From the IMG/VR virus record IMGVR_UViG_3300035208_002606: a stretch of DNA of 64,000 nt. One strand, 5' to 3'. Position numbers and translations under genes: made by a program. Source of the stretch: a virus. Taxonomy: Duplodnaviria > Heunggongvirae > Uroviricota > Caudoviricetes. The notes below the pieces were generated by a model, which worked only from the letters and a program-made list of their open reading frames with translations, made no database searches and was not told the DNA's origin. Position 1 is the first letter of the stretch; the number at the start of each line of letters is the position of its first letter. This document shows, in pieces, positions 255 to 58,826 of the stretch.

Positions 255-264
255 TTCAACCCCC

Positions 265-1308: not shown

Positions 1309-1362
1309 TTGCCACCTCTAAAGTTATTTATTAGAATTTGAAATAAACATTATAAAAAATAA

Positions 1363-2171: not shown

Positions 2172-2193
2172 CCATATATGATATAATATAAGT

Positions 2194-2965: not shown

Positions 2966-2966
2966 A

Positions 2967-3185: not shown

Positions 3186-3187
3186 TA

Positions 3188-3861: not shown

Positions 3862-4095
3862 ATGAGAGAACAACTAGAATCCCTTATGATTAATTCCTTT
3901 ATGTCGTACAAGCAATTGGAACGCATTTTAGAAGAGAGCGAAAAAATCCCCGCTAGGGATATGCAGACTTTGAAAAATTTGCAACGAGAATTTTTTAAAA
4001 TAATAAATAGTTTTGTTCGGGCAATTCCTGAGACCAAAAACGAAGATAAAAAAGAAAATAAAAATAACGAAGATAAAAACGAATTAATTGTGTAA
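3862..4095 (+). CDS. hypothetical protein
   Basis: abuts the upstream stop. Confidence 0.5.
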   Translation: MREQLESLMINSFMSYKQLERILEESEKIPARDMQTLKNLQREFFKIINSFVRAIPETKNEDKKENKNNEDKNELIV

Positions 4096-4100
4096 CACTT

Positions 4101-4111
4101 TGTGGTATAAT
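4101..4111 (+). promoter_or_regulatory. extended -10 promoter (TGTGGTATAAT) likely driving the Y-RNA array and Ro60 gene
   Basis: TGTG(G/A)TATAAT recurs at 16094, 24218, 27170, 43069, 46755 and 49105, each before a gene start. Confidence 0.7.
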
Positions 4112-4151
4112 ATTCTTGTTGAAAGGATTTGAGAGTTATTTGACATTTTTG

Positions 4152-4255
4152 TTGAACGTGGCGACAGGGAAGAGTTACTTCTATCGAAATGGGAATGCAC
4201 CCAAATATGGGCGCTTGGGCTTCGGCCTTCTCTCTTTCCGCATGTTCCCGTTCAA
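4152..4255 (+). ncRNA. Y RNA-like module 1
   Basis: ttgaacg/cgttcaa closing stem; tggcgaca...tgttcc bulged helix; gagttacttc motif. Confidence 0.7.
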
Positions 4256-4264
4256 AGCAATATT

Positions 4265-4456
4265 AAAGATGTGGCGACAGAATGAGTTACTTCATTACAA
4301 CTATTATTTCTTACCCACGGGTAAGAAGCGGCGGGTAAACCCGCTGAAAGCCGCAAGGCGAAATGCCGTGAAATTCGGTGAGAGTCATAGGAACTACGCT
4401 TATGACTCGCCCACAATAAAGTGGGCGAGAAACTCGTTCGCTCATTCCCATCTTTT
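4265..4456 (+). ncRNA. Y RNA-like module 2 (large multi-hairpin cargo)
   Basis: aaagatg/catcttt stem; tggcgacagaatgagttacttc ... actcgttcgctcattcc; at least five internal hairpins. Confidence 0.7.
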
Positions 4457-4465
4457 AGCATTATT

Positions 4466-4577
4466 CGGATGTGGCGACAGAATGAGTTACTTCGGTTAAT
4501 AACTACACAGTAGTTTAGCGGGTTCAAACCCCGCAAAGGCCTTCGGGCTTTAAGACTTATTCGCTCATTCCCATCCG
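4466..4577 (+). ncRNA. Y RNA-like module 3 (T-arm-like hairpin)
   Basis: cggatg/catccg stem; gcgggttcaaaccccgc T-arm mimic; cttcgg hairpin. Confidence 0.7.
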
Positions 4578-4587
4578 TAGCATTATT

Positions 4588-4648
4588 AAGGCGTGGTGTA
4601 GACAGAGATACTTCATTGGAAAAAGCCTCTGTCGATTGTTCCCGCTTT
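4588..4648 (+). ncRNA. Y RNA-like module 4 (minimal)
   Basis: aaggcg/cgcttt stem, gacagag/ctctgtc stem, atacttc motif, almost no cargo. Confidence 0.65.
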
Positions 4649-4659
4649 TAGCATTATTA

Positions 4660-4744
4660 GAGTGTGGCGATAGATATGGGTTACTTCAAAACTAACCATC
4701 TTGGTTCTGCCGAAAGGCAATAGCCCTGTCGCATGTTCCCACTC
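4660..4744 (+). ncRNA. Y RNA-like module 5
   Basis: gagtg/cactc stem; tggcgata...gcatgttcc; ggttacttc; tgcc-gaaa-ggca hairpin. Confidence 0.65.
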
Positions 4745-4756
4745 GTAGCATTATTA

Positions 4757-4895
4757 GGAAGTGGTGTAGATATGAGATACTTCAATAAGATTAAACTGGC
4801 AGTTATGGGTTCGAATCCCATCCAACCTCACGAGGCCGGTAGTTCAATGGTAGAACGGCTAGTCCCCAAAAAGCCTCTATCGCTTGTTCCCTTCC
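4757..4895 (+). ncRNA. YrlA-type Y RNA module 6 (permuted tRNA-like domain)
   Basis: ggaag/cttcc stem; T arm atgggttcgaatcccat comes before a capped stem and a D arm tagttcaatggtagaac. Confidence 0.8.
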
Positions 4896-4906
4896 GTAGC
4901 AATATT

Positions 4907-5052
4907 TACTTGCGTGGTGAAAGGTGAAAGTTACTTCAATGTAATGAAACGATTTCAGGTTCGAGTCCTGACTTAGCCGCAAGGTTATGTAGCCTAATTG
5001 GTAAGGCGTTAGCCCGTAAGGGCAAGACTTTTGCCGCCTGTTCCCGCGAGTA
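4907..5052 (+). ncRNA. YrlA-type Y RNA module 7 (permuted tRNA-like domain)
   Basis: tacttgcg/cgcgagta stem; T arm tcaggttcgagtcctga, gcaa-capped stem, D arm tagcctaattggtaaggc. Confidence 0.8.
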
Positions 5053-5083
5053 CTGAACAAAAATTAAAAATAGGAGATAAACA

Positions 5084-6400
5084 ATGAAGACCAACAAGAA
5101 GACCGTGGCGCAAACGAAGACGACTCACGAAGGTGGTCGTGCTTCTCGTATTACCGCTCTTCAAGAACTAAAGAGGTCGGTAATGTCGTGTCTGCTTTTC
5201 GAAGACCAATTCTACGAGAACGGCGTGGATAACGCAACTCGTATCAAGAATTTGGTGGCGAAGGTAGACCCGCAGGATGCCGTTGCCGTGGCTATTTCAG
5301 CACGAAACGACATGCACCTTCGACATGCCCCGTTGTGGATTGCACGATGGTTGGCAAAGAATCCCGAAGCAAAGGTAGGAGAACTCTTGCCGCAAATTAT
5401 CCAACGAGCAGACGAACTCGCAGAGTTCGTTGCGATGTATTGGAAGGACAAGAAGCAACCGCTCTCCAAGCAAGTTAAGAAAGGTCTAGCCCAAGCATTT
5501 ACGAAGTTCAACGAGTATGCTTTGGCGAAGCACAACAGGGAAGGCGCAGTCAAACTGCGAGATGTCTTGTTCCTTTCTCACGCCAAGCCGAAGGATAAGG
5601 AGCAGGCAGAACTGTGGAAGAAACTCATTGACGGAACTCTCGCAACTCCCGACACTTGGGAAGTCGCCCTGTCAGCAGGGAAGGACAAGAAGGAAACCTT
5701 TGAGCGCATGTTGAAGGAGAACACTCTTGGGGACATGGCGTTCATGCGTAACCTGAGGAACATGGCCCAAGCCAAGGTGGACGAAAAACTCATCAAGGAG
5801 TCCTTCAAGAAGAGGAATTTCAACAAGGTATTCCCCTACCGTTTCATTGCGGCGGCTGAAAATGCGCCGTCCTTTGCGGCAGAGTTGGAGAAGAAAATGT
5901 TGGAGTCCCTGTCCGAGCATCCGAAGTTGGACGGCAAGACCGTTCTGCTCATCGATGTTTCGGGTTCGATGGACATGGAGATGTCGGGCAAGTCAGAGAT
6001 GACGAGAATCCATGCGGCTTCGGCTATCGCAGTACTCGCAAGGGAAATCTGCGAGAATGTTCAAATCTTCACTTTCTCCGAAAGGGCAAAGGAAGTGCCG
6101 AATGTTCACGGGTTCGGACTCATCGACAAGATTTGGAATTCGCAAATGCGCGGCGGCACGAATCTGTGGGGAAGCATTCGACAGATTGATGCCAAGGTGG
6201 ACTACGACAGGATGATTGTCTTCACGGACGAACAGGCTCACGACAGCATGACGAGTAAGCCGAAAGGTCAACTCTATGTCGTGAATGTCGGAGCCTATCA
6301 GAACGGCGTGGCCTACAAGAACTCCGTGCATATTGACGGATTCTCCGAGAAGGTTATTGACTTCATCATGGAGTACGAAAAACAAAGTGTGGTAGAATAG
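5084..6400 (+). CDS. rsr: Ro60/TROVE-domain RNA-binding protein with C-terminal vWA domain
   Basis: THEGG start, EDQFYE, KLRDVLFLSHAKP, TWEVALS, AFMRNLRN, PYRF, vWA MIDAS DVSGSM, GGT and FTDEQ. Confidence 0.92.
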   Translation: MKTNKKTVAQTKTTHEGGRASRITALQELKRSVMSCLLFEDQFYENGVDNATRIKNLVAKVDPQDAVAVAISARNDMHLRHAPLWIARWLAKNPEAKVGELLPQIIQRADELAEFVAMYWKDKKQPLSKQVKKGLAQAFTKFNEYALAKHNREGAVKLRDVLFLSHAKPKDKEQAELWKKLIDGTLATPDTWEVALSAGKDKKETFERMLKENTLGDMAFMRNLRNMAQAKVDEKLIKESFKKRNFNKVFPYRFIAAAENAPSFAAELEKKMLESLSEHPKLDGKTVLLIDVSGSMDMEMSGKSEMTRIHAASAIAVLAREICENVQIFTFSERAKEVPNVHGFGLIDKIWNSQMRGGTNLWGSIRQIDAKVDYDRMIVFTDEQAHDSMTSKPKGQLYVVNVGAYQNGVAYKNSVHIDGFSEKVIDFIMEYEKQSVVE

Positions 6401-6401
6401 T

Positions 6402-6433
6402 AAAAGGGGTGGTGGAAACACCACCCCTTTTTT
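6402..6433 (+). terminator. rho-independent terminator
   Basis: aaaaggggtggtg-gaaa-caccaccccttttttt. Confidence 0.85.
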
Positions 6434-6444
6434 AAAGGAGTAGA

Positions 6445-6750
6445 ATGAAAAGTGATTTTGTAGAAGGGCGGCAGTATATTGAATGTACTTGTGGAAGCAC
6501 CGACCATTTGTTAGTATTTGAACTCGACCCTCATTTTTGCGAAAAGTGGGGAGAGGTTTCAGTTTCTTTCACAAGCGGATATCACGAAAGATTTTTTGCG
6601 AGGTTAAAGGCCGCTGTCAAATATCTGTTTAAAAAGGAAAAATACTTACACATCAGCGACAGCATCATCATCAACGAGAAAAATTTAAAAGCACTAAAAA
6701 CAGCAATTAAGGAAATAGAAAAATTAGCCAAAACAAAAAAATTAGTTTAA
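6445..6750 (+). CDS. hypothetical protein
   Basis: AAGGAG RBS; CxC...H motif. Confidence 0.55.
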   Translation: MKSDFVEGRQYIECTCGSTDHLLVFELDPHFCEKWGEVSVSFTSGYHERFFARLKAAVKYLFKKEKYLHISDSIIINEKNLKALKTAIKEIEKLAKTKKLV

Positions 6751-6793
6751 CAAAGCATAGGGAAAAATTTCAAATAAGGAGGAAAAATTAACT

Positions 6794-7654
6794 ATGGACA
6801 TTAACAGTTTAATCAGCAGGGACGAGATTCAGAAGGACTTGGAGAAGAAGTCCGGCGGCGGGGAGATGAGCGACAGTCGTTTCGTTCGCATCCCCGATGG
6901 AAAGATGAAGGTGCGGCTCCTGCCACGCCTTGAATCGAAGGTTCCTTGGAAGACGGTATTCAGTCACCGTTACAACAAGAACGGCGAGAAATTATTCTCG
7001 ACCTGTCGCAAGACTTTCGGAAAGACCGATTGCCCAATTTGCAAGAGGTCATGGGCGATGTGGAATTCAGAGAACAAGGAAACGAAGGACACGGGCTATA
7101 CGGTTCGTGCAACCCCACGTTATATGTTCAACTGCTACATCGTAGACAACCCGACTAGGCCCGAAGAGAACGGAAGTGTTAAGATTCTTTCCGTGGGTAA
7201 GAAACTCTTCGACCTCATCTCAGAGAGTTTCAATTCCGAGGACTTGGGTGCGGCTATCTTTGACGCAGTCAACGGGTTCGATTTCGAAATCAACCGCAAG
7301 AAGTCAGGAGATAATCCTGATTATCCCGACTACTCTTCATCCCGCTTTATCTTCAAGAAGAGCGGCATCGTGAAGAGTTGGAAGGAAATCGAGGACAAAC
7401 TCATCAACATCAACGAACTCATCAAGGAAGAGTCTGTTGGCGAACTGATGGAGGCCTTCAAGTTCTTGGGGTTTGACGATATTCCTGTAGAGGAAAAGTC
7501 AGCACCGAAGAAACAGGCTCCCGTAAAGAAAGAGGAGAAGAAAGAGGAAGAAGAGGTTGACCTTGATGACCTAGAGGGAGACAACGGCGAAGAGACGAAC
7601 GGTTCCGACTCGCTTGACGATATCGACATCGAAGACGAGTTGGCAAACCTGTAG
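6794..7654 (+). CDS. single-stranded DNA-binding protein (T4 gp32-like)
   Basis: VRLLP, Zn ligands H/C...CPIC, NPTRPEENGSVKI, GFDF, YPDYSSSRF, acidic tail; precedes UvsX. Confidence 0.85.
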   Translation: MDINSLISRDEIQKDLEKKSGGGEMSDSRFVRIPDGKMKVRLLPRLESKVPWKTVFSHRYNKNGEKLFSTCRKTFGKTDCPICKRSWAMWNSENKETKDTGYTVRATPRYMFNCYIVDNPTRPEENGSVKILSVGKKLFDLISESFNSEDLGAAIFDAVNGFDFEINRKKSGDNPDYPDYSSSRFIFKKSGIVKSWKEIEDKLININELIKEESVGELMEAFKFLGFDDIPVEEKSAPKKQAPVKKEEKKEEEEVDLDDLEGDNGEETNGSDSLDDIDIEDELANL

Positions 7655-7678
7655 TAGTTTTTTACGCCAGGGCTTTCG

Positions 7679-7710
7679 GCCCGTTTCTCCCTTAGAAACG
7701 GGCATTTTTT
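7679..7710 (+). terminator. rho-independent terminator
   Basis: gcccgtttct-ccctt-agaaacgggc followed by atttttt. Confidence 0.75.
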
Positions 7711-7724
7711 CATAAGGAGAAATA

Positions 7725-8753
7725 ATGCCAAGAACAGTAGATACTTCAAAAAAGAACGAAGAGAAACCAAACGGAAAAATCAAGGAAACAATAGCAGACC
7801 TTATCAAGATTCTTGACGCTGAACCCGCTGAAGAGGTACAAACAAAGGCGTGGATTAGTACAGGGGTCAGGTCGCTTAACTTTCTACTTTCAGGAGATAC
7901 GGAGAAAGGAATTCCCGTGGGTAAGATGGTTGTAGTAGCAGGAGAACAGCAGTCGGGTAAGTCGCTCTTAGGCGCACGGATTGCGGCTCACGCACAGAAG
8001 CAGGGATATGTCGTGGTGTGGCTTGATTCTGAACTTGCGGGAAGCAAGCAGTTTCTAGGCCGTCAGGGTTTGGATGTCAACCAAGTTGTCTACAGGAATG
8101 TGGACACGGTTGAGGATTTTCAGTTGCTCACCATCAAAGCCCTGAACAGAGCCAAGGAAAAAGGACTTAAACTTTTTATTGTTCTCGACTCCTTGGGCGC
8201 ACTTTCAGGGGCGAAGGAGATGGACGATGCCGATGCCGAGAAGATGACGATGGATATGGGCCTGAGGGCAAAGAACATTCGCACCGCCTTCAAGCAAATC
8301 ATTCACCGTCTTGGTGTTACGGACAGTTGCTTTTTCTGTATCAACCATCAGTACATCTCCCCAGGATTTATTCCGAAGAAGGAGATGGGCGGCGGCATGG
8401 CGGCATGGTACTTGGGGCAAATCGTCCTGTTCCTTGCCAAGTTGAAGGGAGAGGACGGCGTGTTTTCAAGGGTTAAGATTGTATCAAAAAAGAACAGGGA
8501 ATTTATCGAAGGGCGAATCACCGAGTTCGTTATCAATTTCCGAGAGGGTATCGACCCCAATGACGGCTTGATAGACTTGTTTGACGAGTTCAAGGTGATA
8601 AAAAAAAGCGGAGCGTGGTATAATGTCGAAGGAGATGAAAAATCTTACCGAGAACAGGATATCATGAAGAACGAAGAACTGCTTGCAAAAATCATTGCGC
8701 TGTTGAAGGAGAAAACGAAAGACTACGTCTACTCTAGTTTTAGTGCTACCTAA
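7725..8753 (+). CDS. uvsX: RecA-like recombinase
   Basis: ISTG..LN..LSG, Walker A GEQQSGKS, LDSE, IVLDSLGAL, INHQY, MGGG, KKSGAWY. Confidence 0.92.
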   Translation: MPRTVDTSKKNEEKPNGKIKETIADLIKILDAEPAEEVQTKAWISTGVRSLNFLLSGDTEKGIPVGKMVVVAGEQQSGKSLLGARIAAHAQKQGYVVVWLDSELAGSKQFLGRQGLDVNQVVYRNVDTVEDFQLLTIKALNRAKEKGLKLFIVLDSLGALSGAKEMDDADAEKMTMDMGLRAKNIRTAFKQIIHRLGVTDSCFFCINHQYISPGFIPKKEMGGGMAAWYLGQIVLFLAKLKGEDGVFSRVKIVSKKNREFIEGRITEFVINFREGIDPNDGLIDLFDEFKVIKKSGAWYNVEGDEKSYREQDIMKNEELLAKIIALLKEKTKDYVYSSFSAT

Positions 8754-10138
8754 TGCCTAACACGATAGAAAATTATTCGGAAGTATTTCTGAAGACGGTG
8801 TTGGAGTTCACGGAATTCCGACATCTTTTCATTTCCAATTGGAATCCCGAATATTTTGACACCACCGAAGAACGAATTTTTTACAAGGTCATCAGAACGG
8901 TTTGGATAAACGACCACAAGATTCTGACGAAGAAAGATTTAATCTTGGAGTTCACCACCAAGAGCAAGTACGAAAAGATAAGAATGAAACTCGTTGAAGT
9001 GGTCGAGAGGGTCTACTCTCTCGACCTTTCCGAGTATACTGAATCTTTCGTGCGAGACCAATTCCTAGATATTCTTCGCAAGAAGAAATTACAATCCGCA
9101 GTACAGAGGATTGTGGAGGAAGTCAGCAAGTCGGGAAAGGTGGACGAGTCTGCCATCAAGGGAGACATCATCAAGTCGTTGGATATTGAAGACCACCTTC
9201 AGGACTTGGGAATCAATTATTACGAAGGCGACTTACTCAACCGAATGAAGGTGTTGCAGGAGTTGCAAGTCGCCCACTTCAAGACGGGATTCAACGCCGA
9301 CTTGGACGATGTCCTCAGGTTGAAACGAAAGACGGTAGTGGCGGTTTCGGCGCAGTTGGGCGTTGGCAAGAGTTTGTTCCTTAACAACCTAGCAATCAAT
9401 ATGTCCTTGGAAGGTCATAATATTCTGTACCTTTCGTTGGAAATGGATGCCTTTGATATTTCAAAAAGATTGGACAGGATAGCCTTGGGATTTCACGAGG
9501 ACGAATATTTCAAGTCTAGCGACTTGGTCTTGGAGAAGATGGACGAGGTCATAAAGGAAAATCCCAAGCACGGAAAATTATTTATCCGCAGTTACTCACC
9601 CCGAAGTCTTTCCGCTTTTCAAATCCGAACCCTGTTGGAAACCTACAGGATGAAGAATATCGGCATCGATGTCATTCTTGTGGACTACCTGACCCTGATG
9701 CGGCCTAACAATAATCGCAAAGATGATACTATGTACCAAAGAGGTAAAGATATAACAGAAGAGTTACAATCTGTTGCGAAAGATGAGCGTTGTCTGATTT
9801 TTACGGCCCTTCAGGTCAAGAATGAGGCGTACGGAAAGAAGAAGCAAGGTTCCGAACTAGTTGCAGAGTCTCTCGCAATTCCTCAAATTTTAGATAGCCT
9901 TATTAATATGAGGGAAATAATTATAGATGAAAGTGATAAGTTTTTTATTTTACATTTTGAAAAAGTTCGTGATTCAAAAAAAACAAATAAAATGATTTTT
10001 TTGAAATTGAAAGATAATTTGCGTATGGTTTCTGTAACAGAGGAGGAACGAAAGAATTTAGAAGAATTAACAAATAAAAGAAAAACCGTAGAAAGCAACA
10101 AAACCAATACCCAAACAGTTGATTTAGATGTATTATAA
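8753..10138 (+). CDS. replicative DnaB-like helicase (T4 gp41-like)
   Basis: Walker A AQLGVGKS, YLSLEM, ILVDYL, FTALQ, AES; follows UvsX. Confidence 0.88.
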   Translation: MPNTIENYSEVFLKTVLEFTEFRHLFISNWNPEYFDTTEERIFYKVIRTVWINDHKILTKKDLILEFTTKSKYEKIRMKLVEVVERVYSLDLSEYTESFVRDQFLDILRKKKLQSAVQRIVEEVSKSGKVDESAIKGDIIKSLDIEDHLQDLGINYYEGDLLNRMKVLQELQVAHFKTGFNADLDDVLRLKRKTVVAVSAQLGVGKSLFLNNLAINMSLEGHNILYLSLEMDAFDISKRLDRIALGFHEDEYFKSSDLVLEKMDEVIKENPKHGKLFIRSYSPRSLSAFQIRTLLETYRMKNIGIDVILVDYLTLMRPNNNRKDDTMYQRGKDITEELQSVAKDERCLIFTALQVKNEAYGKKKQGSELVAESLAIPQILDSLINMREIIIDESDKFFILHFEKVRDSKKTNKMIFLKLKDNLRMVSVTEEERKNLEELTNKRKTVESNKTNTQTVDLDVL

Positions 10139-30703: not shown

Positions 30704-31303
30704 ATGGAAAATAATATTGAACTTAAAGAGAAAAAACGATTAAAATATTGTTGGGTTTGTGGAAAAGAATTTGAGGCACATACGCCGTGGCACAGATATT
30801 GCTCGCACAAATGTGAAGCAGAAAATCAAAGAAATATTAAAGGAAGAGTTGTTGATAAAGGAAGATATTGTAGACAATGTGGGAAAAAATTTATTCCTTC
30901 ACGAAATGGGGGACAAAATAAACAACATTGCTCTCCCGAATGTGCAGTTAAAAGTGCTAGAGAATCTAGGTCTAAATTTTATAAACTAAATCCACAAAAA
31001 CGAAAAGAGTATGGTTTAAATAGAGAAAAAAAAGTAGGAAAAGACAATAATTTATTAAGATTTTATTTGCGATATCCTGAAGCCCCTAAAAAATGTCAAG
31101 GTTGTGGCAATGATAGGGTTCTTGATATTGCACACAGACCCGAATTTAGGAGAAATGGGGCTTGGAGGTCTAAATCAAATACAACAATCAAAAAAGTATG
31201 GATTTTATGCCCAACTTGTCACGCTTTGTTAGATAGAAAAGGCTGGACTCCAGAAGAGATTGGGATAAAGGAGGAGGAGTCAAATGCCGCTAAAGAAATT
31301 TAA
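30704..31303 (+). CDS. HNH endonuclease with two zinc-finger repeats
   Basis: CWVCGKEF...YCSHKC, CRQCGKKF...HCSPEC, CQGCG...DIAH...LCPTCHALLD. Confidence 0.75.
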   Translation: MENNIELKEKKRLKYCWVCGKEFEAHTPWHRYCSHKCEAENQRNIKGRVVDKGRYCRQCGKKFIPSRNGGQNKQHCSPECAVKSARESRSKFYKLNPQKRKEYGLNREKKVGKDNNLLRFYLRYPEAPKKCQGCGNDRVLDIAHRPEFRRNGAWRSKSNTTIKKVWILCPTCHALLDRKGWTPEEIGIKEEESNAAKEI

Positions 31304-32759
31304 TCATATTGATTTGTTCGCGGGAATTGGGGGATTTTCTTATGCCGCCCGACAGATTTGGGGTGAGGAATATGAACCCGCATTCTTCTGCGAAATCGAC
31401 AAGTACTGCCAAGCCGTACTCAGAAAAAATTTTGGAAAGGAGATAAAGATTTATGGGGACATTAGAAAAGTCACCAAAGAGAGATACCTTAGAGATATTG
31501 CCAACGCCAAGGGCATCCAAAACGACAAACGAGAACGAGGAAAATTGGAAGAAGAGGCAAGCGGCAGGAAAGGTCTCGACTCCCCCTCTCGCTCTCGCCA
31601 TTCAAATGTCCCGCCGCAAGAAAACCAAGACTTTAAAATTGACCTCCTTACCGCTGGCCCACCCTGCCAACCCGCATCTCAAGCAGGAAAGCGAGAAGGA
31701 GAGGAAGATGACCGTTGGCTCTGGGACGAAATGTTTAAAGTTATACAAGACTTTAAACCGACATGGTGCATCGTTGAAAATGTTTACGGACTTCTTAGTC
31801 TCAAAAGGGGAGTGGTATTCGACTCGTTGTTCTCTAAGATGGAAAGCCTTGGTTACGAAGTCCAACCATTTGTTATTGGTGCAGTCGGCAAAAACGCTCC
31901 CCACAAAAGATACCGAGTCTGGTTTATTGCTCACGCCAAGGGCAACGGAAGTGTTGGAAAGTCAGGAGGGGTTCGTCAACAGGAACAACGACAGGTCGAT
32001 GAATTGCTATCCCAACTTGACAACGCAAATCAGCGGGATGCTGACTACTCCGAATGTTCAGGACTCAAGGAATGTTCCTGCGGCGCTGAGGCCGAGCAGA
32101 ATCGAGACGGGGAGAAAGACGGATTATCTCAGCCGCCAAATTGCAATGGTTCCGACCCCGACAGGCACGGATTACAAGAGCAGAGGGCCGAACAGCAAAC
32201 AGATGGGCGTGGACAATTTGATGAAAATGCTCCCGACCCCAAGCACGAAGGATATGTCGGGCGGGGCAGTACAGGCAGAGGCAACGGAGACGGGATTCAA
32301 GAGGGTGAGCAAACAGGGCAAATCTCACGGGGCGCAACTTCACGATGTGGTGAAGACCGTCTCGATGTTGGGAACTCCGAAGGAACAGGACAGTCGTGCG
32401 GCTTTGACGGACAGGGGCCGAAGCAATATGGGGGAGCAAGTGAATCAGGCTTTGAAAGATGGGACAGAGGGTGGTATGAAGTTGCAACCAAACTTTGTAG
32501 AGTGGCTAATGGGCTTCCCGCAAAATTGGACGGACTTGAACTCACCGCCTCCAAACACAGAGAAGAAAGATTGAGAGCGTTAGGAAATGCCGTAGTGCCG
32601 CCGTTGGTTGCCGAGTTTCTCAAGGCCATTAAAAAGGTCGAAGAGATGAATTTGACGGACGAGCCAAAAGTGAAAAAAACGATTGAACACATAAATATAG
32701 ATGAGAGTGGAGAAAAGTATTTCGTGACAAAGACACTAAAGAATTTTGGAGTGAAGTAA
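31284..32759 (+). CDS. DNA (cytosine-5) methyltransferase, alpha chain (motifs I-VIII and X)
   Basis: DLFAGIGG, CEID, GDI, GPPCQ, VENV, PHKRYRVW, LGNAVVP; motif IX absent in this frame. Confidence 0.85.
   Translation: MPLKKFNHIDLFAGIGGFSYAARQIWGEEYEPAFFCEIDKYCQAVLRKNFGKEIKIYGDIRKVTKERYLRDIANAKGIQNDKRERGKLEEEASGRKGLDSPSRSRHSNVPPQENQDFKIDLLTAGPPCQPASQAGKREGEEDDRWLWDEMFKVIQDFKPTWCIVENVYGLLSLKRGVVFDSLFSKMESLGYEVQPFVIGAVGKNAPHKRYRVWFIAHAKGNGSVGKSGGVRQQEQRQVDELLSQLDNANQRDADYSECSGLKECSCGAEAEQNRDGEKDGLSQPPNCNGSDPDRHGLQEQRAEQQTDGRGQFDENAPDPKHEGYVGRGSTGRGNGDGIQEGEQTGQISRGATSRCGEDRLDVGNSEGTGQSCGFDGQGPKQYGGASESGFERWDRGWYEVATKLCRVANGLPAKLDGLELTASKHREERLRALGNAVVPPLVAEFLKAIKKVEEMNLTDEPKVKKTIEHINIDESGEKYFVTKTLKNFGVK
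31453..32574 (+). CDS. nested +1-frame methyltransferase beta chain (repeat modules plus motif IX)
   Basis: 373 stop-free codons; six [LMV]xTP modules; C-terminal KLQPNFVEWLMGFPQNWT resembles C5-MTase motif IX. Confidence 0.7.
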   Translation: MGTLEKSPKRDTLEILPTPRASKTTNENEENWKKRQAAGKVSTPPLALAIQMSRRKKTKTLKLTSLPLAHPANPHLKQESEKERKMTVGSGTKCLKLYKTLNRHGASLKMFTDFLVSKGEWYSTRCSLRWKALVTKSNHLLLVQSAKTLPTKDTESGLLLTPRATEVLESQEGFVNRNNDRSMNCYPNLTTQISGMLTTPNVQDSRNVPAALRPSRIETGRKTDYLSRQIAMVPTPTGTDYKSRGPNSKQMGVDNLMKMLPTPSTKDMSGGAVQAEATETGFKRVSKQGKSHGAQLHDVVKTVSMLGTPKEQDSRAALTDRGRSNMGEQVNQALKDGTEGGMKLQPNFVEWLMGFPQNWTDLNSPPPNTEKKD

Positions 32760-40856: not shown

Positions 40857-42176
40857 ATGTATGTTAAAGTAAAAATTAAATTTGTTTTATCTTTGCTAGT
40901 GTCATTTGCGTGGATTGCGGTTGCCACATATTTGGCGATACCGTGGTTTTATGACATAGCGGCACAATTAGGCTCTGTTTTGGCGGTCATAATCATTTTG
41001 ACACTAGCGATTATCCCGGGGTGGGCAATGTCGTTTGTGATATCTTCTTTATGTTTTGATAAACGCCCAAATTATAAAGAGAAAGTGTTTAATGCGCCGC
41101 CGCTTACTTTATTAATAGCGGCATATAATGAGGAAAATAATATTATTGATACCTTATCATCGATATCTTCCCAAGAATACAATAGTCATTTACGGGTTAT
41201 AATAATTGATGATGGCTCGACTGATAAAACGGCAGAAAAAGCATCTGAATTTATAAATAATCATTTTAGTGAAAGTAAAACCTTTGAATTGGTGAAGCAC
41301 GAAAAAAATCAAGGCAAAGCCCAAGCACTACAAACAGGTTTAAATCTTACAGAAACCAAATATATTATCACGATGGATGGAGACTCTTACCTTTTAAAAA
41401 ACTCCGTTGATAACCTTGTAAGAAATATTGTTTTCGGCCCACCAATGACCGCGGCTGTTGCGGGTAGTGTTTTGGTTCGTAATTCCCGAAAAAATTTAAT
41501 TACTAGACTTCAAGAGTGGGATTATTTTCACGGCATTGCCACCATCAAAAGAGTGCAATCTCTTTACCAAGGAACGATGGTCGCCCAAGGTTCTTTCTCC
41601 GTTTATCGAACTGATTTTGTGAGACGAGTTGGTGGGTGGCCTTCAAAAATAGGAGAAGATATTGTTTTAACTTGGGGATTACGAGAAAAGGGGGATAGAA
41701 TTTCTTACGCTGAAAATGCATTTTGTTTTACCCATGTTCCCGAAACCTACAAACAATTTTTTAGACAACGAAAGCGATGGGCAAGAGGATTGATAGAAGC
41801 ATTTAAAAAGTATCCACGGTCTCTGACCCAATTAAAAATGACTTTGCCTTTTATTTGGTATAACCTTTGTTTCCCATTAGTGGATAGTAGTTATCTATTA
41901 TTTTTTATTCCTGGAATAGTTTTAGCATTATTATTCAAGTGTTATCTATTAGTAGGATTGATGACAATATTGTTGCTTCCGTTGGCAGTTATTGCTAATA
42001 TCATATTTTTCTATAAACAAAAAAAGATATTTAAAAAATATGGATTAAAAGTGAGACGAAATGTTTTTGGTTTTCTTTTTTATATGTTAATTTATCAAAC
42101 ACTAATGGCCCCCGCTACGGTGGCAGGATATCTCAGCGAAGTATTAAATTTAACAAAGAAATGGGGGACGAAATAA
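40857..42176 (+). CDS. processive membrane GT2 glycosyltransferase (PgaC/IcaA-like polysaccharide synthase)
   Basis: N- and C-terminal TM helices; AYNEE, DDGSTD, DGDS, GED and QRKRW motifs. Confidence 0.85.
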   Translation: MYVKVKIKFVLSLLVSFAWIAVATYLAIPWFYDIAAQLGSVLAVIIILTLAIIPGWAMSFVISSLCFDKRPNYKEKVFNAPPLTLLIAAYNEENNIIDTLSSISSQEYNSHLRVIIIDDGSTDKTAEKASEFINNHFSESKTFELVKHEKNQGKAQALQTGLNLTETKYIITMDGDSYLLKNSVDNLVRNIVFGPPMTAAVAGSVLVRNSRKNLITRLQEWDYFHGIATIKRVQSLYQGTMVAQGSFSVYRTDFVRRVGGWPSKIGEDIVLTWGLREKGDRISYAENAFCFTHVPETYKQFFRQRKRWARGLIEAFKKYPRSLTQLKMTLPFIWYNLCFPLVDSSYLLFFIPGIVLALLFKCYLLVGLMTILLLPLAVIANIIFFYKQKKIFKKYGLKVRRNVFGFLFYMLIYQTLMAPATVAGYLSEVLNLTKKWGTK

Positions 42177-50553: not shown

Positions 50554-51318
50554 ATGAAAAAAGAGCAAGGGTTTATTTATATAACCACAAATATAACTAA
50601 TGGTAAACAATACGTGGGACAAACAATAAGAAACTTTAAACAAAGGAAAAGAGAACACATTCATCCTGCCGATACCCTGCTTCTTTATCGCGCCTTGAAA
50701 AAACATGGTGAAGAAAATTTCAAGTGGGTTTATTTTGATTGCCCCATTAAAGATTTAGACTGGCAAGAAACATTATTAATAAAAGAGTTAAATACTTTGG
50801 CTCCAAAAGGTTATAACTTAGAAACAGGCGGGAATAAAAATAAACACCCACATGAAACGACAAAACAAAAAATAGGACAAGGGAGGAGTAAGTATTTAAA
50901 AGAACACCCCGAAACAATTAAAGGGGAAAATAATCCATTTTATCAACATAAATGGACAGAAGAAGAACGAGAAAATTTAAGTAAAAAATTAAAGGGTAGA
51001 TTTATAGGTGAAAAAAATCCTAACTATGGAAAAGGAAAATTTGGAAAAGACAACCCTAGATTTGGAAAGGGACACCTACAAACAGGAAAAAATAATCCCA
51101 ATTATGGACATAAATGGACACAAGAACAAAAAGAGGCCCAAAGTAAAAAATTAAAAGGAAAGTTTTCTGGTGAAAATAATCCTATGTTTGGGGTTCATCG
51201 TTTTGGTAAAGAAAATCCTATGTTTGGGAAAAAAAGACCCGACCTAGTTGAACGAAATAAAAAAAGAAAGGAGAATAAATGCGAATTTGGAACGAAGAGT
51301 ACCGCCCAAAAACCCTAA
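50554..51318 (+). CDS. GIY-YIG homing endonuclease with NUMOD3-type repeats
   Basis: GFIYITTNITNGKQYVGQT, PKGYNL..GG, repeated NPxYG/NPMFG. Confidence 0.85.
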   Translation: MKKEQGFIYITTNITNGKQYVGQTIRNFKQRKREHIHPADTLLLYRALKKHGEENFKWVYFDCPIKDLDWQETLLIKELNTLAPKGYNLETGGNKNKHPHETTKQKIGQGRSKYLKEHPETIKGENNPFYQHKWTEEERENLSKKLKGRFIGEKNPNYGKGKFGKDNPRFGKGHLQTGKNNPNYGHKWTQEQKEAQSKKLKGKFSGENNPMFGVHRFGKENPMFGKKRPDLVERNKKRKENKCEFGTKSTAQKP

Positions 51319-52143: not shown

Positions 52144-52488
52144 ATGGCAAAGTTCAAAGTAATTGAAATCTTAGGACGGGAAAAACTCCTACGATATCTA
52201 AAAAGTAAAGAAGTAGAAGGCGGCAAAGAATGCCCCACCTGTCACGGTTGGGGAAAAATTTTTGTAGGACAAGACAAGGATAAAAGGGTGGAATGTCCTG
52301 AGTGTGGTGGAACAGGAAAAATAAAAGTTAAAGAATCCACCACGGCAGGAAGCCTTTCAGCCGCTCCCGCAGGAGCAACCCCGATGCAACGATACGATGC
52401 CAAAGGCCAACCCACTTCGGCAGTAATGCCAAAGGGATTTAAAAAAAAGAAGAAAAAGAAAATCATCAAAAGAGTGTTACCAAAGTAA
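52144..52488 (+). CDS. small protein with a DnaJ-type CxxCxGxG zinc finger
   Basis: CPTCHGWG and CPECGGTG; basic tail; TAAATA 5 nt upstream. Confidence 0.55.
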   Translation: MAKFKVIEILGREKLLRYLKSKEVEGGKECPTCHGWGKIFVGQDKDKRVECPECGGTGKIKVKESTTAGSLSAAPAGATPMQRYDAKGQPTSAVMPKGFKKKKKKKIIKRVLPK

Positions 52489-52514: not shown

Positions 52515-52766
52515 ATGGGTATTTACAACATAGTCAACTTCTCGTTGAACTGTCCTGTGTGCGGGAGTTTAATAAAACAGTTTCAGACCAAAGAAGGAAA
52601 TGGGGCTTTTGATATAGTTGCATTCAACGAGGTCAATAATTTTTATGCAATTTGCCCATCCTGTTCCTCTTTGGTAGAATTTTATTATGCCCCCGAAAAC
52701 AAGGAGCGAACAATTGAAGACTACAAAGCCCGTATAATTTCAACCCGTAAAAATGACAGATATTAA
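52515..52766 (+). CDS. small zinc-ribbon protein
   Basis: CPVCG...FQTK...CPSC. Confidence 0.5.
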   Translation: MGIYNIVNFSLNCPVCGSLIKQFQTKEGNGAFDIVAFNEVNNFYAICPSCSSLVEFYYAPENKERTIEDYKARIISTRKNDRY

Positions 52767-53130
52767 TCGCACCCCTTTTGATTTTGTCAAGCAGATTCGG
52801 GCGGGAGTCCCGCTGACTGCGGACGAAATGAAGGAGTTTAATCCGTTTTTAATTACAAAATTATACTATTACGCAGGATATGAAAAAGTTGCGAATTTCT
52901 TCAACATCCTTCATATTCTCCCCAAGGAAATCCAGTACAGGTTGTTCTGTATTTTTTTCAAGGGTGTTTACCCTAAGGGGTGGATTAAATCGACAAAAAT
53001 AAACAAGAAAATTCCTGTTGAAATCGAACACCTGAAGATGATTTATTCCGTTTCCACAAAGGTTGCAACGGAATACGCAGAACTTCTGACAGATGAGGAA
53101 CGCAAGGAAATCAGGAGGAAGTATGATTAA
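52753..53130 (+). CDS. clamp loader small subunit (T4 gp62-like)
   Basis: PFDF, FNPFLI, QY, W.K, Y.VS...A.EY..LL. Confidence 0.7.
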   Translation: MTDINRTPFDFVKQIRAGVPLTADEMKEFNPFLITKLYYYAGYEKVANFFNILHILPKEIQYRLFCIFFKGVYPKGWIKSTKINKKIPVEIEHLKMIYSVSTKVATEYAELLTDEERKEIRRKYD

Positions 53131-53398
53131 CAAAAAATGTTTTCTTACCAATAAAGGCAAACTTTATGTAATATTACATGGGGGATGTAAATATATGAAT
53201 CTTAATCATTTCATGTGTGAGGGCTGTGTTTATTTCACCCAGAAAGCAAAAAAATTAAAATTACAACGATTACAAGAATTAAAAGAAGATATGTCTTTTT
53301 ATCATATAGATTTAGAAAAAGAACTTGTAGCAATTTTATCCCAAGAAATTAAAAACCAACAAAATATGGGATATATAAAAGAGGGAATATATGATTAA
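53123..53398 (+). CDS. Cys-rich small protein carrying a major-capsid-like segment (paralog A)
   Basis: AGGAGG RBS; C.L.NK..L.VILH..C...C..C.YF, then KAKKLK...ELKEDM...HIDLEKELVAILSQEI. Confidence 0.6.
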   Translation: MINKKCFLTNKGKLYVILHGGCKYMNLNHFMCEGCVYFTQKAKKLKLQRLQELKEDMSFYHIDLEKELVAILSQEIKNQQNMGYIKEGIYD

Positions 53399-53645
53399 AG
53401 GCTGTCCTTTAGACAACAAGGAAAGACTCAGAGTCATACTGCATTCGGAGTGCCATCTTGGTCAATTTGATAATGAGGTCTGTAAAAAATGTCCTTATTT
53501 TCAAACATTTCTTCGGGGATATCCAAGTTTAATCGCAAACGAGATTTTTGGAGTTCAGCCGATGAACCCACCAACAGGGATGATTTTTAATTTAAAATTT
53601 AGATACGACCTAGGAGAAAAGAATGAAGACGAAAAAGAAAAATAA
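53391..53645 (+). CDS. Cys-rich small protein carrying a Gol-region major-capsid segment (paralog B)
   Basis: same Cys scaffold, then RGYPSLIANEIFGVQPMNPPTGMIFNLKFRY. Confidence 0.7.
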   Translation: MIKGCPLDNKERLRVILHSECHLGQFDNEVCKKCPYFQTFLRGYPSLIANEIFGVQPMNPPTGMIFNLKFRYDLGEKNEDEKEK

Positions 53646-53859
53646 AGAAGAAGGAATTTTTTACGAAAAGTGTCTGCTTGAGGAAAAGTTAGATGCCAAG
53701 CAATCAGGACTTTTCAAACTTAACGGGATGTGTTTCGTGTTGGAAAAATTTCCTGAACTAAAGGCCACCTGCCCCGACTGTTTCTACTTCAAGGAAATTC
53801 CACCCAAGAGTTATTCTTGCAGGAGATTTTTTTGCACCCTTGAGAAGGTAGAAAAATAA
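53623..53859 (+). CDS. Cys-rich small protein (more distant paralog C)
   Basis: KCLL...C...CPDCFYF. Confidence 0.5.
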   Translation: MKTKKKNKEEGIFYEKCLLEEKLDAKQSGLFKLNGMCFVLEKFPELKATCPDCFYFKEIPPKSYSCRRFFCTLEKVEK

Positions 53860-56800
53860 TGGCAAAGCATATTATTTTCGTGTCGGAAAAAGACCACTTC
53901 GCCAAAAACGATGACTATATCAAGACGAAGTTGTTGAAGAAGTGGAACCCGCAAGTCTACAGCCACCTTTCCGAAGAAGAGGCAACAGGCTTGGATGCCA
54001 ATTTGGTTTTATTGTTCGGAAGTGAAATTCTTTACCGCAAATTTCCCGACAAGGATTTCGGCAAATTTTTCAGAGACCAAGACGGACAAGTCTTCGGCTC
54101 CTTGCAAAATTACAAGGACTTTGACCGACTAGAGAAGAAGGAAACCACAACCAAAATAAAAGAGGCGAGGGAAAAACTTAACAAATTTTTCTCTCGCTTT
54201 GCTTTGGTTCGAGTTACAGACCACTCCTATTTCTACAGGGATATCGATTTTAAGAAGATTAGGGCTAAGAACGCTTTCAAGGCCAACTTCAAATTCGTGG
54301 AAGACCCTGAAGGAGATTATCTTTCCTACGAAGGCAAGAAACTGAAAAAGGTCCCGAAGGAGTACCAAACCTTTTCCCAAACCTACGAAGAGCATCTCAG
54401 GGCGAAGGACTTATTTTATTACGAACAGTATCCCAATATCGCACACACCCGTCTCCTGCACTACTGCACCTTCGACATCGAAACCAATCTTTCGCTCGAT
54501 ACCGCAAAAGCACCTGAACCCATTATTTCCATCGCCGCTCACTCCAATATCTACGACAAGAATTTTGTTTGGATTTTAAAGAAGAAGGAGGGGCAGACTT
54601 ACGACAAGGAGAAATTTAAGAACGAAAAAATCTTTGAATTTTTGAACGAAGTAAAAATGCTTCGCCACTTCTTCGACACGATGGAAAAGTTGCAAGTGGA
54701 TTTGTTGGGCGGGTGGAACTGTATACCCACCTCGCAATCTGTTTGGGGAGAAAATAAAATAACTTCTATTTTAGAAGCCTCTAATAAATTATGTGATTCT
54801 AATATACTTTTTAAATCCCCAATTTCAAAAAAAGAAAAATGGGAAATAGAATTGATAAATGGGTCAAAAATATATACATCTTCTGACCATAGAACTCCTA
54901 TCATAAGAATACCAAAAGAAAAATATACTAACTTAGAAAATAAAATTTGTGAAAATCTAGAAATGACAACAGAAGAAATGCACTCTTCTAAAGATTCTTT
55001 ATTTGTCGAATTAAAATTGAGGACAAATGAAAATTTAGATAATACAAATTATAATTTATCTCAACTTTATTTGGCTGGCCTTGTATATACAGATGGCTCT
55101 ATTAAAAATAAAAAGTATTTTTATAAAGGGTTTGTGGTTTCCCAATCTGATAAATCATTTTTAAAAAAACTGCCATTTTTAACTACTAAAATTTTAGGAC
55201 CGTGGAAAAATAATTATTCTAGAAATGTAAAATCTTCTCTTTTGGGTAATGCCATCCATCTCATTTATAACGATAAAAAAGAGAAAGAACTTAATTTTCA
55301 AGAACTTTCTACACTTTCTTATAAACAATTTATGTCATTTTTGTCAGGATTATTAGATGGTGATGGGTGTAATATAAGAAATAAAGGAATTGGATTATGT
55401 GATTATCATGAAGGGTCTATAGATAAAATCTATGAATTATGTTTATGGAATGGAATTCTTTCGTCAATTTCCAAAAATAGATTTGTATTGCGATTTCTGA
55501 ATTTAAAATTATCTGATTTAAGTTTATTGAAAGAAAAAAGATGGGTAAAATTAAAAACAACAAAAATAGATAGAAACTCCAAAACAAAGGCACATCTAAA
55601 AAAATTTCGCATTATTGGAAATAAATGTTTAATTAGAATTAAAAAAATAAAAAACACAAAAAAAGTGGTGGAAATGGTGGATATTACCACCACAACAAAA
55701 TATTTTTATACTCATGGAATGAAAACCCATAATTGCGACTTCTTCGACATTCCTTACCTTCTGCACCGAAGCAAAAGATTGGGGGTGGACTTCAAGAACT
55801 TCCTTGCCGAAGTCTACGAAAGCATCGGCAAGGACGGCGAAAAATCCTACTTCTGCCACGAAATCATTTTGTGGGATTATCTACGCTATGCCAAGTGGAT
55901 TATCGTGGAGAACAAGCCGATTGCTTGGAGTCTTGACGCAGTTTCCAAGCACCTGTTCAACGAAAAGAAAATCGAACACGAAGGCATCGATGTTCTGTGG
56001 GCCAAGAAGGATTTGAGCGACCTGATAGAATACAACCTGAAGGATGTTTACCTGACGGAAAAGATAGCGCAGATGCAGAAGATTATCGAGTTCCCGATTC
56101 TCTATCAAAAGATTGCCCCGCAGACCTATGAGAATGTTTACTTCAACAGCCGTTTTTTGGAGACGATGATTCATCAACGCTTCAAGCAGTTCAAGTTCCC
56201 GTCCAAGAAAAAACAAAAACTTAGTTCAACTTTCAAAGGGGCATTGGTGTTGGAGACCAAGCCCGGACTGTTCGAGAATGTTTCCGTCTTCGACTTCTCA
56301 GCCCTGTACCCAAGTATTATGATTTCTCTCAACCTTTCCAAGGATACGATTATTGAGGACTTGAAGGATTTCGACCCCAAGACGGATATCAGAATCGGGA
56401 ACGTAATGTTCACGGGAAAACGCAAAGGCGTGGTTCCTCAACTCGCCCAACTGCTCCTAACAGAACGAAACAAGTTGAAGAAGAGGAAAATGGAATTCTC
56501 AGGAGACTCGCAGGAATTTAAAATTCTGAACGACCTGGAAGCCTGTTTCAAGGCAACGAACAACGCCCTCTACGGCGTGTTGGGATTCAGGGGCTTTATT
56601 CTGTACGACCAACGAGTTGCCTCATCCGTCACCCATGTCGCACGAGAGACCCTGCGCTTTGTCAAGCATGCGGCTGAAGAACAGGGCTATCAAATCCTGA
56701 CGGGGGATACGGATAGTATTTTTATCAAAGTGCAGTCGGATAGTTTGGAAGAAACCATTCAGAAGTCCAAGCACCTTCAAGATATTTTCAACAAGGGACT

Positions 56801-57488
56801 TCCCGAATTTTTGGACAAGTTCACCAAGAACGACAAACTCATCAAGACCCACATTATGCAGACCGTGTTCGAAAAGTCATTCTCCAAGTTACTTCTCGCT
56901 CCTGCCAAAAAGAAACAGGTAGGATTCCTTAAATTCTTCAAGGGAAAAATTCTCGACAAGGAAGAACTTTACATCAAGGGGTTTGAGGCCATTAAGGATG
57001 ACACACCGACATTCTTCAAGAAAGTTTTAAAGGGACTTTACGAAAATATCCTAAATAATTATGGAGATGTGGAAAAACTGAAGGAATATGCCAAGGGAGT
57101 AAAGAAGGAATTGAAACAACAACAACCTATCGACCTCGTAATCCGTAAGAAGATGAGCAAGAGAATAGAAGAATACGATTCCAAGGTTCAGCATGTCAAA
57201 GCCATTCGCAACTCCAATACTACTATCAAGAGGGGAGAAACGGTCAATATCTTGTTCGTCCAAGACCCCCGACAGGTTATTCACTACGACCCCGAATTGA
57301 ACTTAAAATTCGAGATAGATTACAAAAAATACTTCCACGACTTTTTGGTGAAGAAGATTGAACTTATCGATTCTAGTCTACACTACAAACTGTTCTTGGA
57401 GAAAACGAAATTGATGGATATTTCTCAGGTCAATATCGTCAACCGCATCAAGAAGAAAAAAATCGTGTTGAAGAAATTAGGAGAGTAG
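53859..57488 (+). CDS. family B DNA polymerase (T4 gp43-like) with an intein
   Basis: FDIET, GWN/FDIPY split by the intein, YNLKD, DFSALYPS, K..NNALYG, GDTDS, KGFE. Confidence 0.95.
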   Translation: MAKHIIFVSEKDHFAKNDDYIKTKLLKKWNPQVYSHLSEEEATGLDANLVLLFGSEILYRKFPDKDFGKFFRDQDGQVFGSLQNYKDFDRLEKKETTTKIKEAREKLNKFFSRFALVRVTDHSYFYRDIDFKKIRAKNAFKANFKFVEDPEGDYLSYEGKKLKKVPKEYQTFSQTYEEHLRAKDLFYYEQYPNIAHTRLLHYCTFDIETNLSLDTAKAPEPIISIAAHSNIYDKNFVWILKKKEGQTYDKEKFKNEKIFEFLNEVKMLRHFFDTMEKLQVDLLGGWNCIPTSQSVWGENKITSILEASNKLCDSNILFKSPISKKEKWEIELINGSKIYTSSDHRTPIIRIPKEKYTNLENKICENLEMTTEEMHSSKDSLFVELKLRTNENLDNTNYNLSQLYLAGLVYTDGSIKNKKYFYKGFVVSQSDKSFLKKLPFLTTKILGPWKNNYSRNVKSSLLGNAIHLIYNDKKEKELNFQELSTLSYKQFMSFLSGLLDGDGCNIRNKGIGLCDYHEGSIDKIYELCLWNGILSSISKNRFVLRFLNLKLSDLSLLKEKRWVKLKTTKIDRNSKTKAHLKKFRIIGNKCLIRIKKIKNTKKVVEMVDITTTTKYFYTHGMKTHNCDFFDIPYLLHRSKRLGVDFKNFLAEVYESIGKDGEKSYFCHEIILWDYLRYAKWIIVENKPIAWSLDAVSKHLFNEKKIEHEGIDVLWAKKDLSDLIEYNLKDVYLTEKIAQMQKIIEFPILYQKIAPQTYENVYFNSRFLETMIHQRFKQFKFPSKKKQKLSSTFKGALVLETKPGLFENVSVFDFSALYPSIMISLNLSKDTIIEDLKDFDPKTDIRIGNVMFTGKRKGVVPQLAQLLLTERNKLKKRKMEFSGDSQEFKILNDLEACFKATNNALYGVLGFRGFILYDQRVASSVTHVARETLRFVKHAAEEQGYQILTGDTDSIFIKVQSDSLEETIQKSKHLQDIFNKGLPEFLDKFTKNDKLIKTHIMQTVFEKSFSKLLLAPAKKKQVGFLKFFKGKILDKEELYIKGFEAIKDDTPTFFKKVLKGLYENILNNYGDVEKLKEYAKGVKKELKQQQPIDLVIRKKMSKRIEEYDSKVQHVKAIRNSNTTIKRGETVNILFVQDPRQVIHYDPELNLKFEIDYKKYFHDFLVKKIELIDSSLHYKLFLEKTKLMDISQVNIVNRIKKKKIVLKKLGE
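54720..55733 (+). mobile_element. intein with LAGLIDADG homing endonuclease (338 aa)
   Basis: starts CIPTSQ and ends KTHN before Cys; YLAGLVYTDG and FLSGLLDGDG; AT-rich against flanks. Confidence 0.92.
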
Positions 57489-58070: not shown

Positions 58071-58826
58071 ATGAGTGAAGTAAAAAATATTATTTATCAA
58101 GCACAAAACAAACAACGAAAATGTTTTTACATAGGATATTCATCTAGGGGGTTATCTTCTAGAAAACACACACATAAACAAGGGTGTTTTCAAAAAAATC
58201 AAAATATTAAATTTTATAATTTTCTTAGAAAATACGGATGGGATAGTTTTACTTGGGAAATACTAGCAGTTTATCCCACAAAAGAAGAGTTACCTGAAGC
58301 CGAACGATATTGGCTAATTAAAGAAAAGAAAAATCGACCAGATTGGGAGTATTTGAATATGACAGAAGGAGGAGAGGGGTCTCTAGGTCATATAGTTAGT
58401 GATAAACAGAAACAGATACAAAGTATAAAAATGTCAGGAAAAAATCATCCTTTTTGGGGTAAAAAAAGACCCGAACATTCAGAAAAAATGAAAGGAAAGT
58501 TTTTGGGATTTAAACATACAGAAGAAACAAGAATGAAAATGAGAAAACCCAAATCTGAAGAAGCAAAACAACATATGCGAAAACCAAAAACCCATGAACA
58601 TAATCAAAAAAATTCTTTAGCGCATATGGGCCTTCAAGTAGGAAAAAAAAATGGAATGTGGGGAAAACACCCTATACCGTGGAATAAAGGACAATTAAAA
58701 CTTTCTATTAAAAATATTTCAAAAATTAAAGAACTTTTATTAAAAAAAAATATAACACAACACAAAATTGCAACAATATTTAATGTTGCTGATTCTATGA
58801 TTACAAAAATAAAAAAGGAGATATAA
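58071..58826 (+). CDS. GIY-YIG homing endonuclease
   Basis: IIYQAQN...FYIG, LNMTEGG, HPFWGKK, PWNKG, C-terminal HTH. Confidence 0.8.
   Translation: MSEVKNIIYQAQNKQRKCFYIGYSSRGLSSRKHTHKQGCFQKNQNIKFYNFLRKYGWDSFTWEILAVYPTKEELPEAERYWLIKEKKNRPDWEYLNMTEGGEGSLGHIVSDKQKQIQSIKMSGKNHPFWGKKRPEHSEKMKGKFLGFKHTEETRMKMRKPKSEEAKQHMRKPKTHEHNQKNSLAHMGLQVGKKNGMWGKHPIPWNKGQLKLSIKNISKIKELLLKKNITQHKIATIFNVADSMITKIKKEI

Follow-up and report, generated by a model that had tools for sequence, protein, structure and literature searches.

Small Cys4 proteins encoded among the replication genes of T4-like jumbo phages carry ancient copies of virion-protein segments

Bacterial sensing of conserved phage structural proteins is a field of very active study, and the answers of phages to such sensing, beyond point mutation, are largely unknown. 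The Gol region of the T4 major capsid protein (MCP) gp23 is a stretch of 29 residues, better conserved than any other part of gp23; it works in linear form, as a short peptide apart from the folded protein, and is recognized by the e14 Lit protease together with EF-Tu (PMC3014915). Binding of EF-Tu by this region has been proposed to be important for translation and folding of gp23 (PMC3014915). For Lit and CapRel alike, short motifs are described as the means of recognizing the MCP (bioRxiv 10.64898/2026.01.04.697583), and tail fibres also trigger defences (PMC13728456). Protein fragments commonly inhibit the protein from which they derive (PMC9245647, PMC11831152, bioRxiv 10.1101/2023.05.02.539157). 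In microProteins and other inhibitory fragments, including the Rpn_S intragenic antitoxins, a small protein matches one segment of a larger oligomerising protein. Another point of comparison is provided by the internal proteins IPI–III of T4, which are encoded in tandem arrays of small genes and have a conserved N-terminus, a variable remainder and fast turnover between related phages.

The two small proteins described here, the products of ORFs A and B, share features with each of these systems and differ from all of them. In function they probably resemble microProteins or inhibitory fragments most closely and B, whose tail is homologous to the stretch 99–131 of gp23, would specifically resemble the Gol peptide. 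Unlike Gol, which is part of gp23 itself, the segment in B belongs to a protein with its own gene in a replication operon and is joined to a Cys4 module. Unlike microProteins and the Rpn_S antitoxins, one putative zinc carrier bears fragments of several virion proteins, and the genes are separate, stand in tandem arrays and have diverged anciently from their parents (37–66% identity). With IPI–III, and with hyperplastic arrays of small early ORFs, they have in common the tandem layout, the constant N-terminus, the variable rest and the turnover. There is, however, no sequence similarity to the internal proteins; the conserved part is a Cys4 domain instead of a 10-residue targeting peptide, and the variable parts copy structural proteins.

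The stretch of DNA that was analysed (the window, 64,000 nt) is part of the 239-kb metagenomic contig ENA ERZ27247350, and its source is an uncultured T4-like jumbo phage. The DNA polymerase of the window is at most ~24% identical to that of any isolate phage, over the aligned half, and the phage's own capsid protein at most ~34%. The genome of a close relative, G004, is complete (223 kb, with terminal repeats), and genomes of the group are of jumbo size (223–239 kb). The window contains a replication and nucleotide-metabolism module with UvsX, gp41, gp46, UvsW, ribonucleotide reductase, ThyX, the sliding clamp and the clamp loader. GIY-YIG homing-endonuclease genes are found at 50554–51318, between clamp and clamp loader, and at 58071–58826.

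The three small ORFs to which an earlier note on this DNA had drawn attention exist at the positions it gave, all on the plus strand: A at 53123–53398 (91 aa, ATG at 53123), B at 53391–53645 (84 aa) and the cysteine-rich C at 53623–53859 (78 aa), which precedes the polymerase. The upstream boundary of the array is a gp62-like small clamp-loader subunit (52753–53130, plus strand; phrog_225, E 2e-12). Downstream it is bounded by a gp43-like family B DNA polymerase (53859–57488, plus strand) with a LAGLIDADG intein; this polymerase has 1209 aa, compared with 870 aa in the L048 orthologue, where the insert is absent. The T4 gene order 45-44-62-regA-43 was confirmed, so that the array does lie, as had been proposed, between gp62 and gp43 at the map position of regA. 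A Shine-Dalgarno-like purine run is present 5′ of each of the three ORFs, and each of their starts overlaps the stop of the preceding gene, just as the polymerase ATG (53859) overlaps the stop of C. Because of these purine-rich ribosome-binding sites and start/stop overlaps, A, B and C almost certainly share a transcript, and are coupled in translation, with the replication genes. Since A and B sit in a gp44–gp62–pol replication operon, it is reasonable to infer, with T4 as the analogy, that they are expressed before the late genes, with early or middle timing. No informative timing signal came from scanning for promoters and terminators or from searching for the late-promoter motif of T4.

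A and B begin with a common N-terminal module of about 40 residues, which we refer to as the scaffold (residues 1–39 of each protein, at 53123–53239 and 53391–53507, respectively). The sharing of this module, seen in the earlier note, is confirmed by 43% identity over 35 aa. Four cysteines, C5, C21, C31 and C34 in B numbering, are invariant in 66 of 66 family sequences and include a CxxC knuckle. At the sequence level the scaffold thus has both features of a generic Cys4 metal site, as the putative zinc-binding carrier of the note should, and it presumably holds one zinc ion. AlphaFold, run with the family alignment, predicts a small helical N-terminal module (pLDDT 70–83) followed by a tail that is largely unstructured, mostly at pLDDT <65. 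Searches of Pfam, PHROGs, NCBIfam and PADLOC with the scaffold returned no match, Foldseek found no similar fold in the PDB even at E <= 10, and the ESM Atlas yielded nothing usable. No defence-related PADLOC model was matched by the ORFs and no RNA-binding family by A or B. The scaffold is likewise absent from isolate phage genomes: matches of B in 2563 phage records all fall within MCP genes and involve the tail only. By these comparisons the scaffold belongs to no described zinc-finger family.

The tail of B (residues 42–76, 53514–53618; its start had been quoted as 53511, three nucleotides too early) matches the Pfam Gp23 family (PF07068) at profile positions 14–45 with 38.3 bits and E 1.4e-9, exceeding the curated cut-off of 24.4, and the PHROG major head protein with E 5.3e-9. 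It is 65.5% identical to residues 82–110 of the phage's own MCP and aligns to residues 99–131 of T4 gp23, as represented by PDB capsid sequences, with ~58–64% identity. This is the stretch that the earlier note had equated with the Gol region, and the T4 gp23 strings given there occur verbatim in the PDB alignments. From the T4 gp23 alignment and the general features of the HK97 fold, we take the copied piece to be the end of the N-arm and the first E-loop strand.

The tail of A (residues 38–86, 53234–53380) is more diverged. Alone it matches Pfam Gp23 with E 6e-4 and 19.8 bits, below the cut-off of 24.4, at profile positions 146–187, and it shares 37% identity with residues 216–253 of the own MCP. 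A profile of six A-type proteins aligned to residues 213–262 of the same MCP with a profile-profile probability of 95% and E 2.5e-8. By the same alignment and fold features, this piece presumably corresponds to the returning (second) E-loop strand and the spine helix. Tails of this class, in orthologues or paralogues of A, were also found in G001, L048, P0040, P0050 and P0091; a word-pattern scan for ORF A in IMG/VR found nothing. Thus A and B do carry different fragments of the MCP, as had been suggested, and both are homologous to the phage's own capsid gene.

That gene lies outside the window, in which no MCP gene was found. It was located via synteny with the related 169-kb contig G001 and then by flank sequence, about 16 kb downstream of the polymerase (L043:18292–19647, 451 aa); a search for MCP homologues at E <= 1e-100 had not revealed it. 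The MCP gene is intact, and the possibility that the array is a split or intron-broken MCP gene was rejected. The mapping onto T4 gp23 rests on sequence alignment, the AlphaFold model of the own MCP (from 18 close sequences) having a pLDDT of 36. A and B show significant local profile homology to the Pfam Gp23 MCPs, including the vertex paralogue gp24, but each spans only ~30–50 of the 376 profile positions. Because this coverage is about a tenth of the fold, A and B are, judged from the alignments, not capsid proteins: an HK97 fold could not form.

The copies are ancient. Nucleotide identity between the B tail and the own MCP gene is 55%, and only 7 of 29 third codon positions match, from which it follows that third positions are randomised and synonymous sites saturated. 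Nucleotide similarity to the MCP gene being at background, recent recombination and a role at the DNA level (recombination, antisense pairing) were both rejected. The tails carry clade-specific residues of the group's MCP, plus ancestral residues that have since changed in the present MCP, and hence go back to an ancestral form of the capsid gene of this group. They evolve faster than the near-invariant parent segments. Nevertheless, B is under purifying selection: compared with its orthologue P0002 (75% identical, present in six other contigs at the same locus), dN/dS is 0.15 overall, 0.09 in the scaffold and 0.24 in the tail, at dS ~1, vs 0.10 for the neighbouring gp62. Decay of the ORFs, an outcome that the earlier note had considered, is not borne out by this ratio or by the invariant cysteines. 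From architecture and selection taken together, we are highly confident that A and B are working genes whose copied segments are selectively maintained.

We then asked how widely the scaffold occurs. A scaffold-only profile, searched against 1.84 billion representative proteins, gave 88 matches. About 85 of them are small proteins of 57–153 aa in which the scaffold nearly always starts at residue 1; the remainder are a few repetitive longer proteins, apparently spurious, and no fusion of the scaffold into a larger protein was found in this search. There are at least 16 copies in G001 and 10 in the complete G004 genome. A Pfam scan of 66 members detected Gp23 in 13 and Phage_sheath_1C in 8, and no other family recurred; the best match to the tail-sheath C-terminal domain scored 33 bits and covered nearly the full domain. 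By motif, ~40% of members bear one of five capsid segments, and these five fall on the blocks in which the MCP alignment varies least. The gap between gp62 and polymerase in G001 contains six scaffold paralogues followed by a C orthologue; half of the six tails copy the contig's own MCP (residues 75–113, 241–268 and 400–415), and members outside the gap copy residues 312–333 and 383–423. Another G001 member (78171–78518, equivalent to L037:18171–18500, minus strand) has a tail of GYS/GWS collagen-like triplets matching the repeats of five large fibre-like proteins encoded at 209–9516 of the same contig. The search for scaffolds fused to pieces of other structural proteins, proposed on the basis of A and B alone, was thus rewarded with the tail-sheath C-terminal domain and collagen-like fibre repeats. 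No source protein was assigned for ~45% of family tails; for the IKIE, NEGV, T/N/Y-rich and HTH-like classes none was found in G001, the window or L043. Literature searches for phage capsid-fragment decoys or mimics gave nothing equivalent, and we therefore consider the architecture new and A, B and their relatives a previously undescribed phage protein family. It offers cloneable natural proteins that present the most conserved capsid motifs, including the putative Gol stretch, together with pieces of sheath and fibre, and whichever way these proteins act, their tails would map functionally critical segments of T4-type virion proteins.

The nature of the copied proteins bears on one possible function, that of dominant-negative poisons of competitors, whose fragments would co-fold or co-polymerise with the capsid, sheath or fibre proteins of a rival and cap or derail its assembly. 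All identified tails derive from self-associating, polymerising proteins, fragments commonly inhibit their parents (PMC9245647, PMC11831152), and the kept motifs are conserved across all T4-like MCPs, the B tail matching the MCP gene in each of the 2563 isolate phage records mentioned above. Fast copy-number turnover between related phages would also fit. However, no discrimination between self and non-self is visible, the B tail being 66% identical to the own MCP and ~64% to that of T4, and a small protein made early would be vastly outnumbered by capsid protein, an obstacle unless poisoning is substoichiometric. We regard this explanation as unlikely but as a serious rival to the reading favoured below, and give similarly low odds to the victims being co-infecting T4-like phages, induced prophages or satellites. 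Were the proteins inhibitors or regulators of assembly, they would be natural cases of fragment-based virus-assembly inhibition.

The composition of the array differs markedly among relatives. Between gp62 and the polymerase, L020 has only B and the window has A and B; G004 has four members there, L048 about five and G001 six. Arrays thus hold from one to six copies with differing tails although the MCPs of these phages are ~90% identical, and such turnover is typical of arms-race accessory genes. In a scaffold tree, itself weakly resolved, well-supported clades mix tail classes, and one scaffold subtype bears Gol-type, strand-only, spine, C-terminal and sheath tails. This mixing points either to swapping of tails between carriers or to concerted evolution of scaffolds within a genome.

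Tails are evidently trimmed as well as conserved. The G004 orthologue of a spine-helix member (L046:4077–4274) keeps the first dozen MCP-like residues and then diverges, in a manner that resembles a frameshift or truncation, and several members of the ‘strand-only’ class retain just the last strand of the Gol-type tail.

Truncated or frame-shifted tails such as that of L046 4077–4274 and of the strand-only class, along with the GIY-YIG and HNH genes and the intein nearby, are what might be expected if the ORFs were non-functional chimeras left by illegitimate recombination or homing-endonuclease traffic. We consider such an origin extremely improbable. The dN/dS of 0.15 at dS ~1 and the four cysteines invariant in 66 sequences speak against debris, as does the invariable placement of the fragments, which follow the same module on its C-terminal side and keep the frame in which the MCP is read. 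Moreover, there are ~85 clusters from many samples, and the saturation of synonymous sites relative to the parent gene implies long retention.

Which parts of the capsid protein were copied limits what the tails could imitate. Core strands and the spine helix would mimic only non-native or nascent capsid protein and not a folded epitope. Incorporation into the particle, with tails that co-assemble with the parent and carry the zinc module in or on the virion in the manner of the T4 internal-protein targeting sequences, therefore meets a difficulty, since a complete HK97 fold cannot take up these elements. It would furthermore make the constant part the cargo and leave the addressing to the variable part, the reverse of expectation. 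What speaks for virion targeting is the loose likeness of tandem arrays with a conserved N-terminus and a variable rest to those of the T4 internal proteins, and a 114-aa neighbour (see below) that may mimic the region of the MCP maturation site; on balance we think it very unlikely.

Mimicry of core segments does imply binding to the non-native parent or to its handlers, and a role of the proteins as regulators directed at the phage itself has to be weighed. They could be holdase-like or capping factors acting on folding intermediates of the own capsid, sheath and fibre proteins and timing or buffering the assembly of a large virion, or, alternatively, could engage the host handlers (EF-Tu, chaperonin) of these proteins. 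Jumbo genomes of 223–239 kb are in keeping with such a need, and the Gol region, to which EF-Tu binds, has a proposed role in gp23 translation and folding (PMC3014915). Regulators of this type would be predicted to form a stable, conserved, single-copy set, yet the repertoire differs among phages with near-identical MCPs. Their genes lie in the replication module and not in the morphogenesis module, and the tails evolve faster than the nearly invariant parent segments. Direct action on the own virion proteins seems improbable to us, and action through host handlers no less so, but self-directed regulation is another serious rival.

The reading that we tentatively favour, at somewhat less than an even chance, is that the proteins act in trans against host sensors, by mimicking motifs of virion proteins that are yet unassembled. 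The probable zinc module displays a flexible tail copied from a linear, conserved stretch of a virion protein that polymerises. As the copied capsid segments would be HK97 core strands and a helix, unable to join a folded subunit, the tails would imitate nascent or unassembled capsid protein and compete for whatever binds those linear motifs: host sensors, the parent proteins during folding and assembly, or host handlers such as EF-Tu. The likeliest targets would be surveillance proteins of the host that recognize freshly synthesized structural proteins by short motifs, in the way Lit reads Gol with EF-Tu, and CapRel. Each paralogue, made with the replication genes before the late phase, might occupy or blunt one sensor. 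That the carriers form a modular arsenal of mimics of the capsid, sheath and fibre motifs that bacterial sensors read, refitted by tail swapping so that each paralogue disarms one sensor before the late phase, is a possibility we hold with more doubt.

We prefer antagonism of sensors for three reasons. The repertoire turns over among phages whose structural proteins hardly differ, a sign of an external pressure that varies; the neighbours of the array are early accessory genes; and an early protein of low abundance would suit a low-abundance sensor better than it would the most abundant late protein. Several considerations weigh on the other side. A displayed trigger, such as a Gol-like motif, is expected by default to activate a Lit-type sensor rather than to block it, and a small protein made early could not titrate EF-Tu, which is far too abundant. 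Both the sheath handshake domain and the collagen-like repeats serve self-association and suit co-assembly with the parent at least as well as binding to a sensor. If the family does consist of sensor antagonists, it would represent a new principle of counter-defence, mimicry of the phage's own triggers, and its tails would point to the motifs that immunity reads.

ORF C lies directly upstream of the polymerase in all relatives examined and is 61–81% identical to three orthologues, with which it shares four invariant cysteines (C17, C50, C53 and C66). A resemblance of its cysteine pattern to the scaffold had been claimed earlier; C is indeed cysteine-rich, but the relation is weak, with an hhalign probability of 43%, and C may be distantly related to it. 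The tail of C has no assigned source. The likeness of C to T4 RegA is confined to map position: C has no similarity to T4 RegA and was rejected as its equivalent.

Between gp44 and gp62, the window encodes a 114-aa protein with a DnaJ-type CXXCXGXG zinc finger (52144–52488, plus strand). The C-terminal half of this protein aligns to residues 47–83 of the own MCP, which surround the predicted prohead-protease maturation cleavage site, with an hhalign probability of 71% and E 3.7e-5. Its orthologues in G001, G004 and L047 are without the zinc finger and have kept the tail. This is suggestive of a second type of carrier, which may follow a similar capsid-fragment theme. The product of the neighbouring gene (52515–52766) is a zinc-ribbon protein of the classical type, 83 aa long; immediately behind its second CxxC stands a short motif that resembles, with no statistical support, the C-terminal strand motif of the MCP.

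A different arrangement was seen in a related phage, ~2.4 kb downstream of an MCP and an HNH gene. There, a 104-aa ORF (L018:6732–7046, equivalent to G003 603–680) opens with a copy of MCP residues 385–408, scoring 28 bits to Pfam Gp23, and continues with an unrelated tail. A Cys-rich 69-aa ORF precedes it with a 23-nt overlap; the architecture differs from that of the family, and a frameshift is possible.

Elsewhere in the window, a Ro60/TROVE-like protein with a vWA domain is encoded at 5084–6400 (Pfam TROVE, E 1e-12). The replication module also holds genes for a C5 cytosine DNA methylase and a family-2 glycosyltransferase (31284–32759 and 40857–42176), which may form a DNA-modification system.
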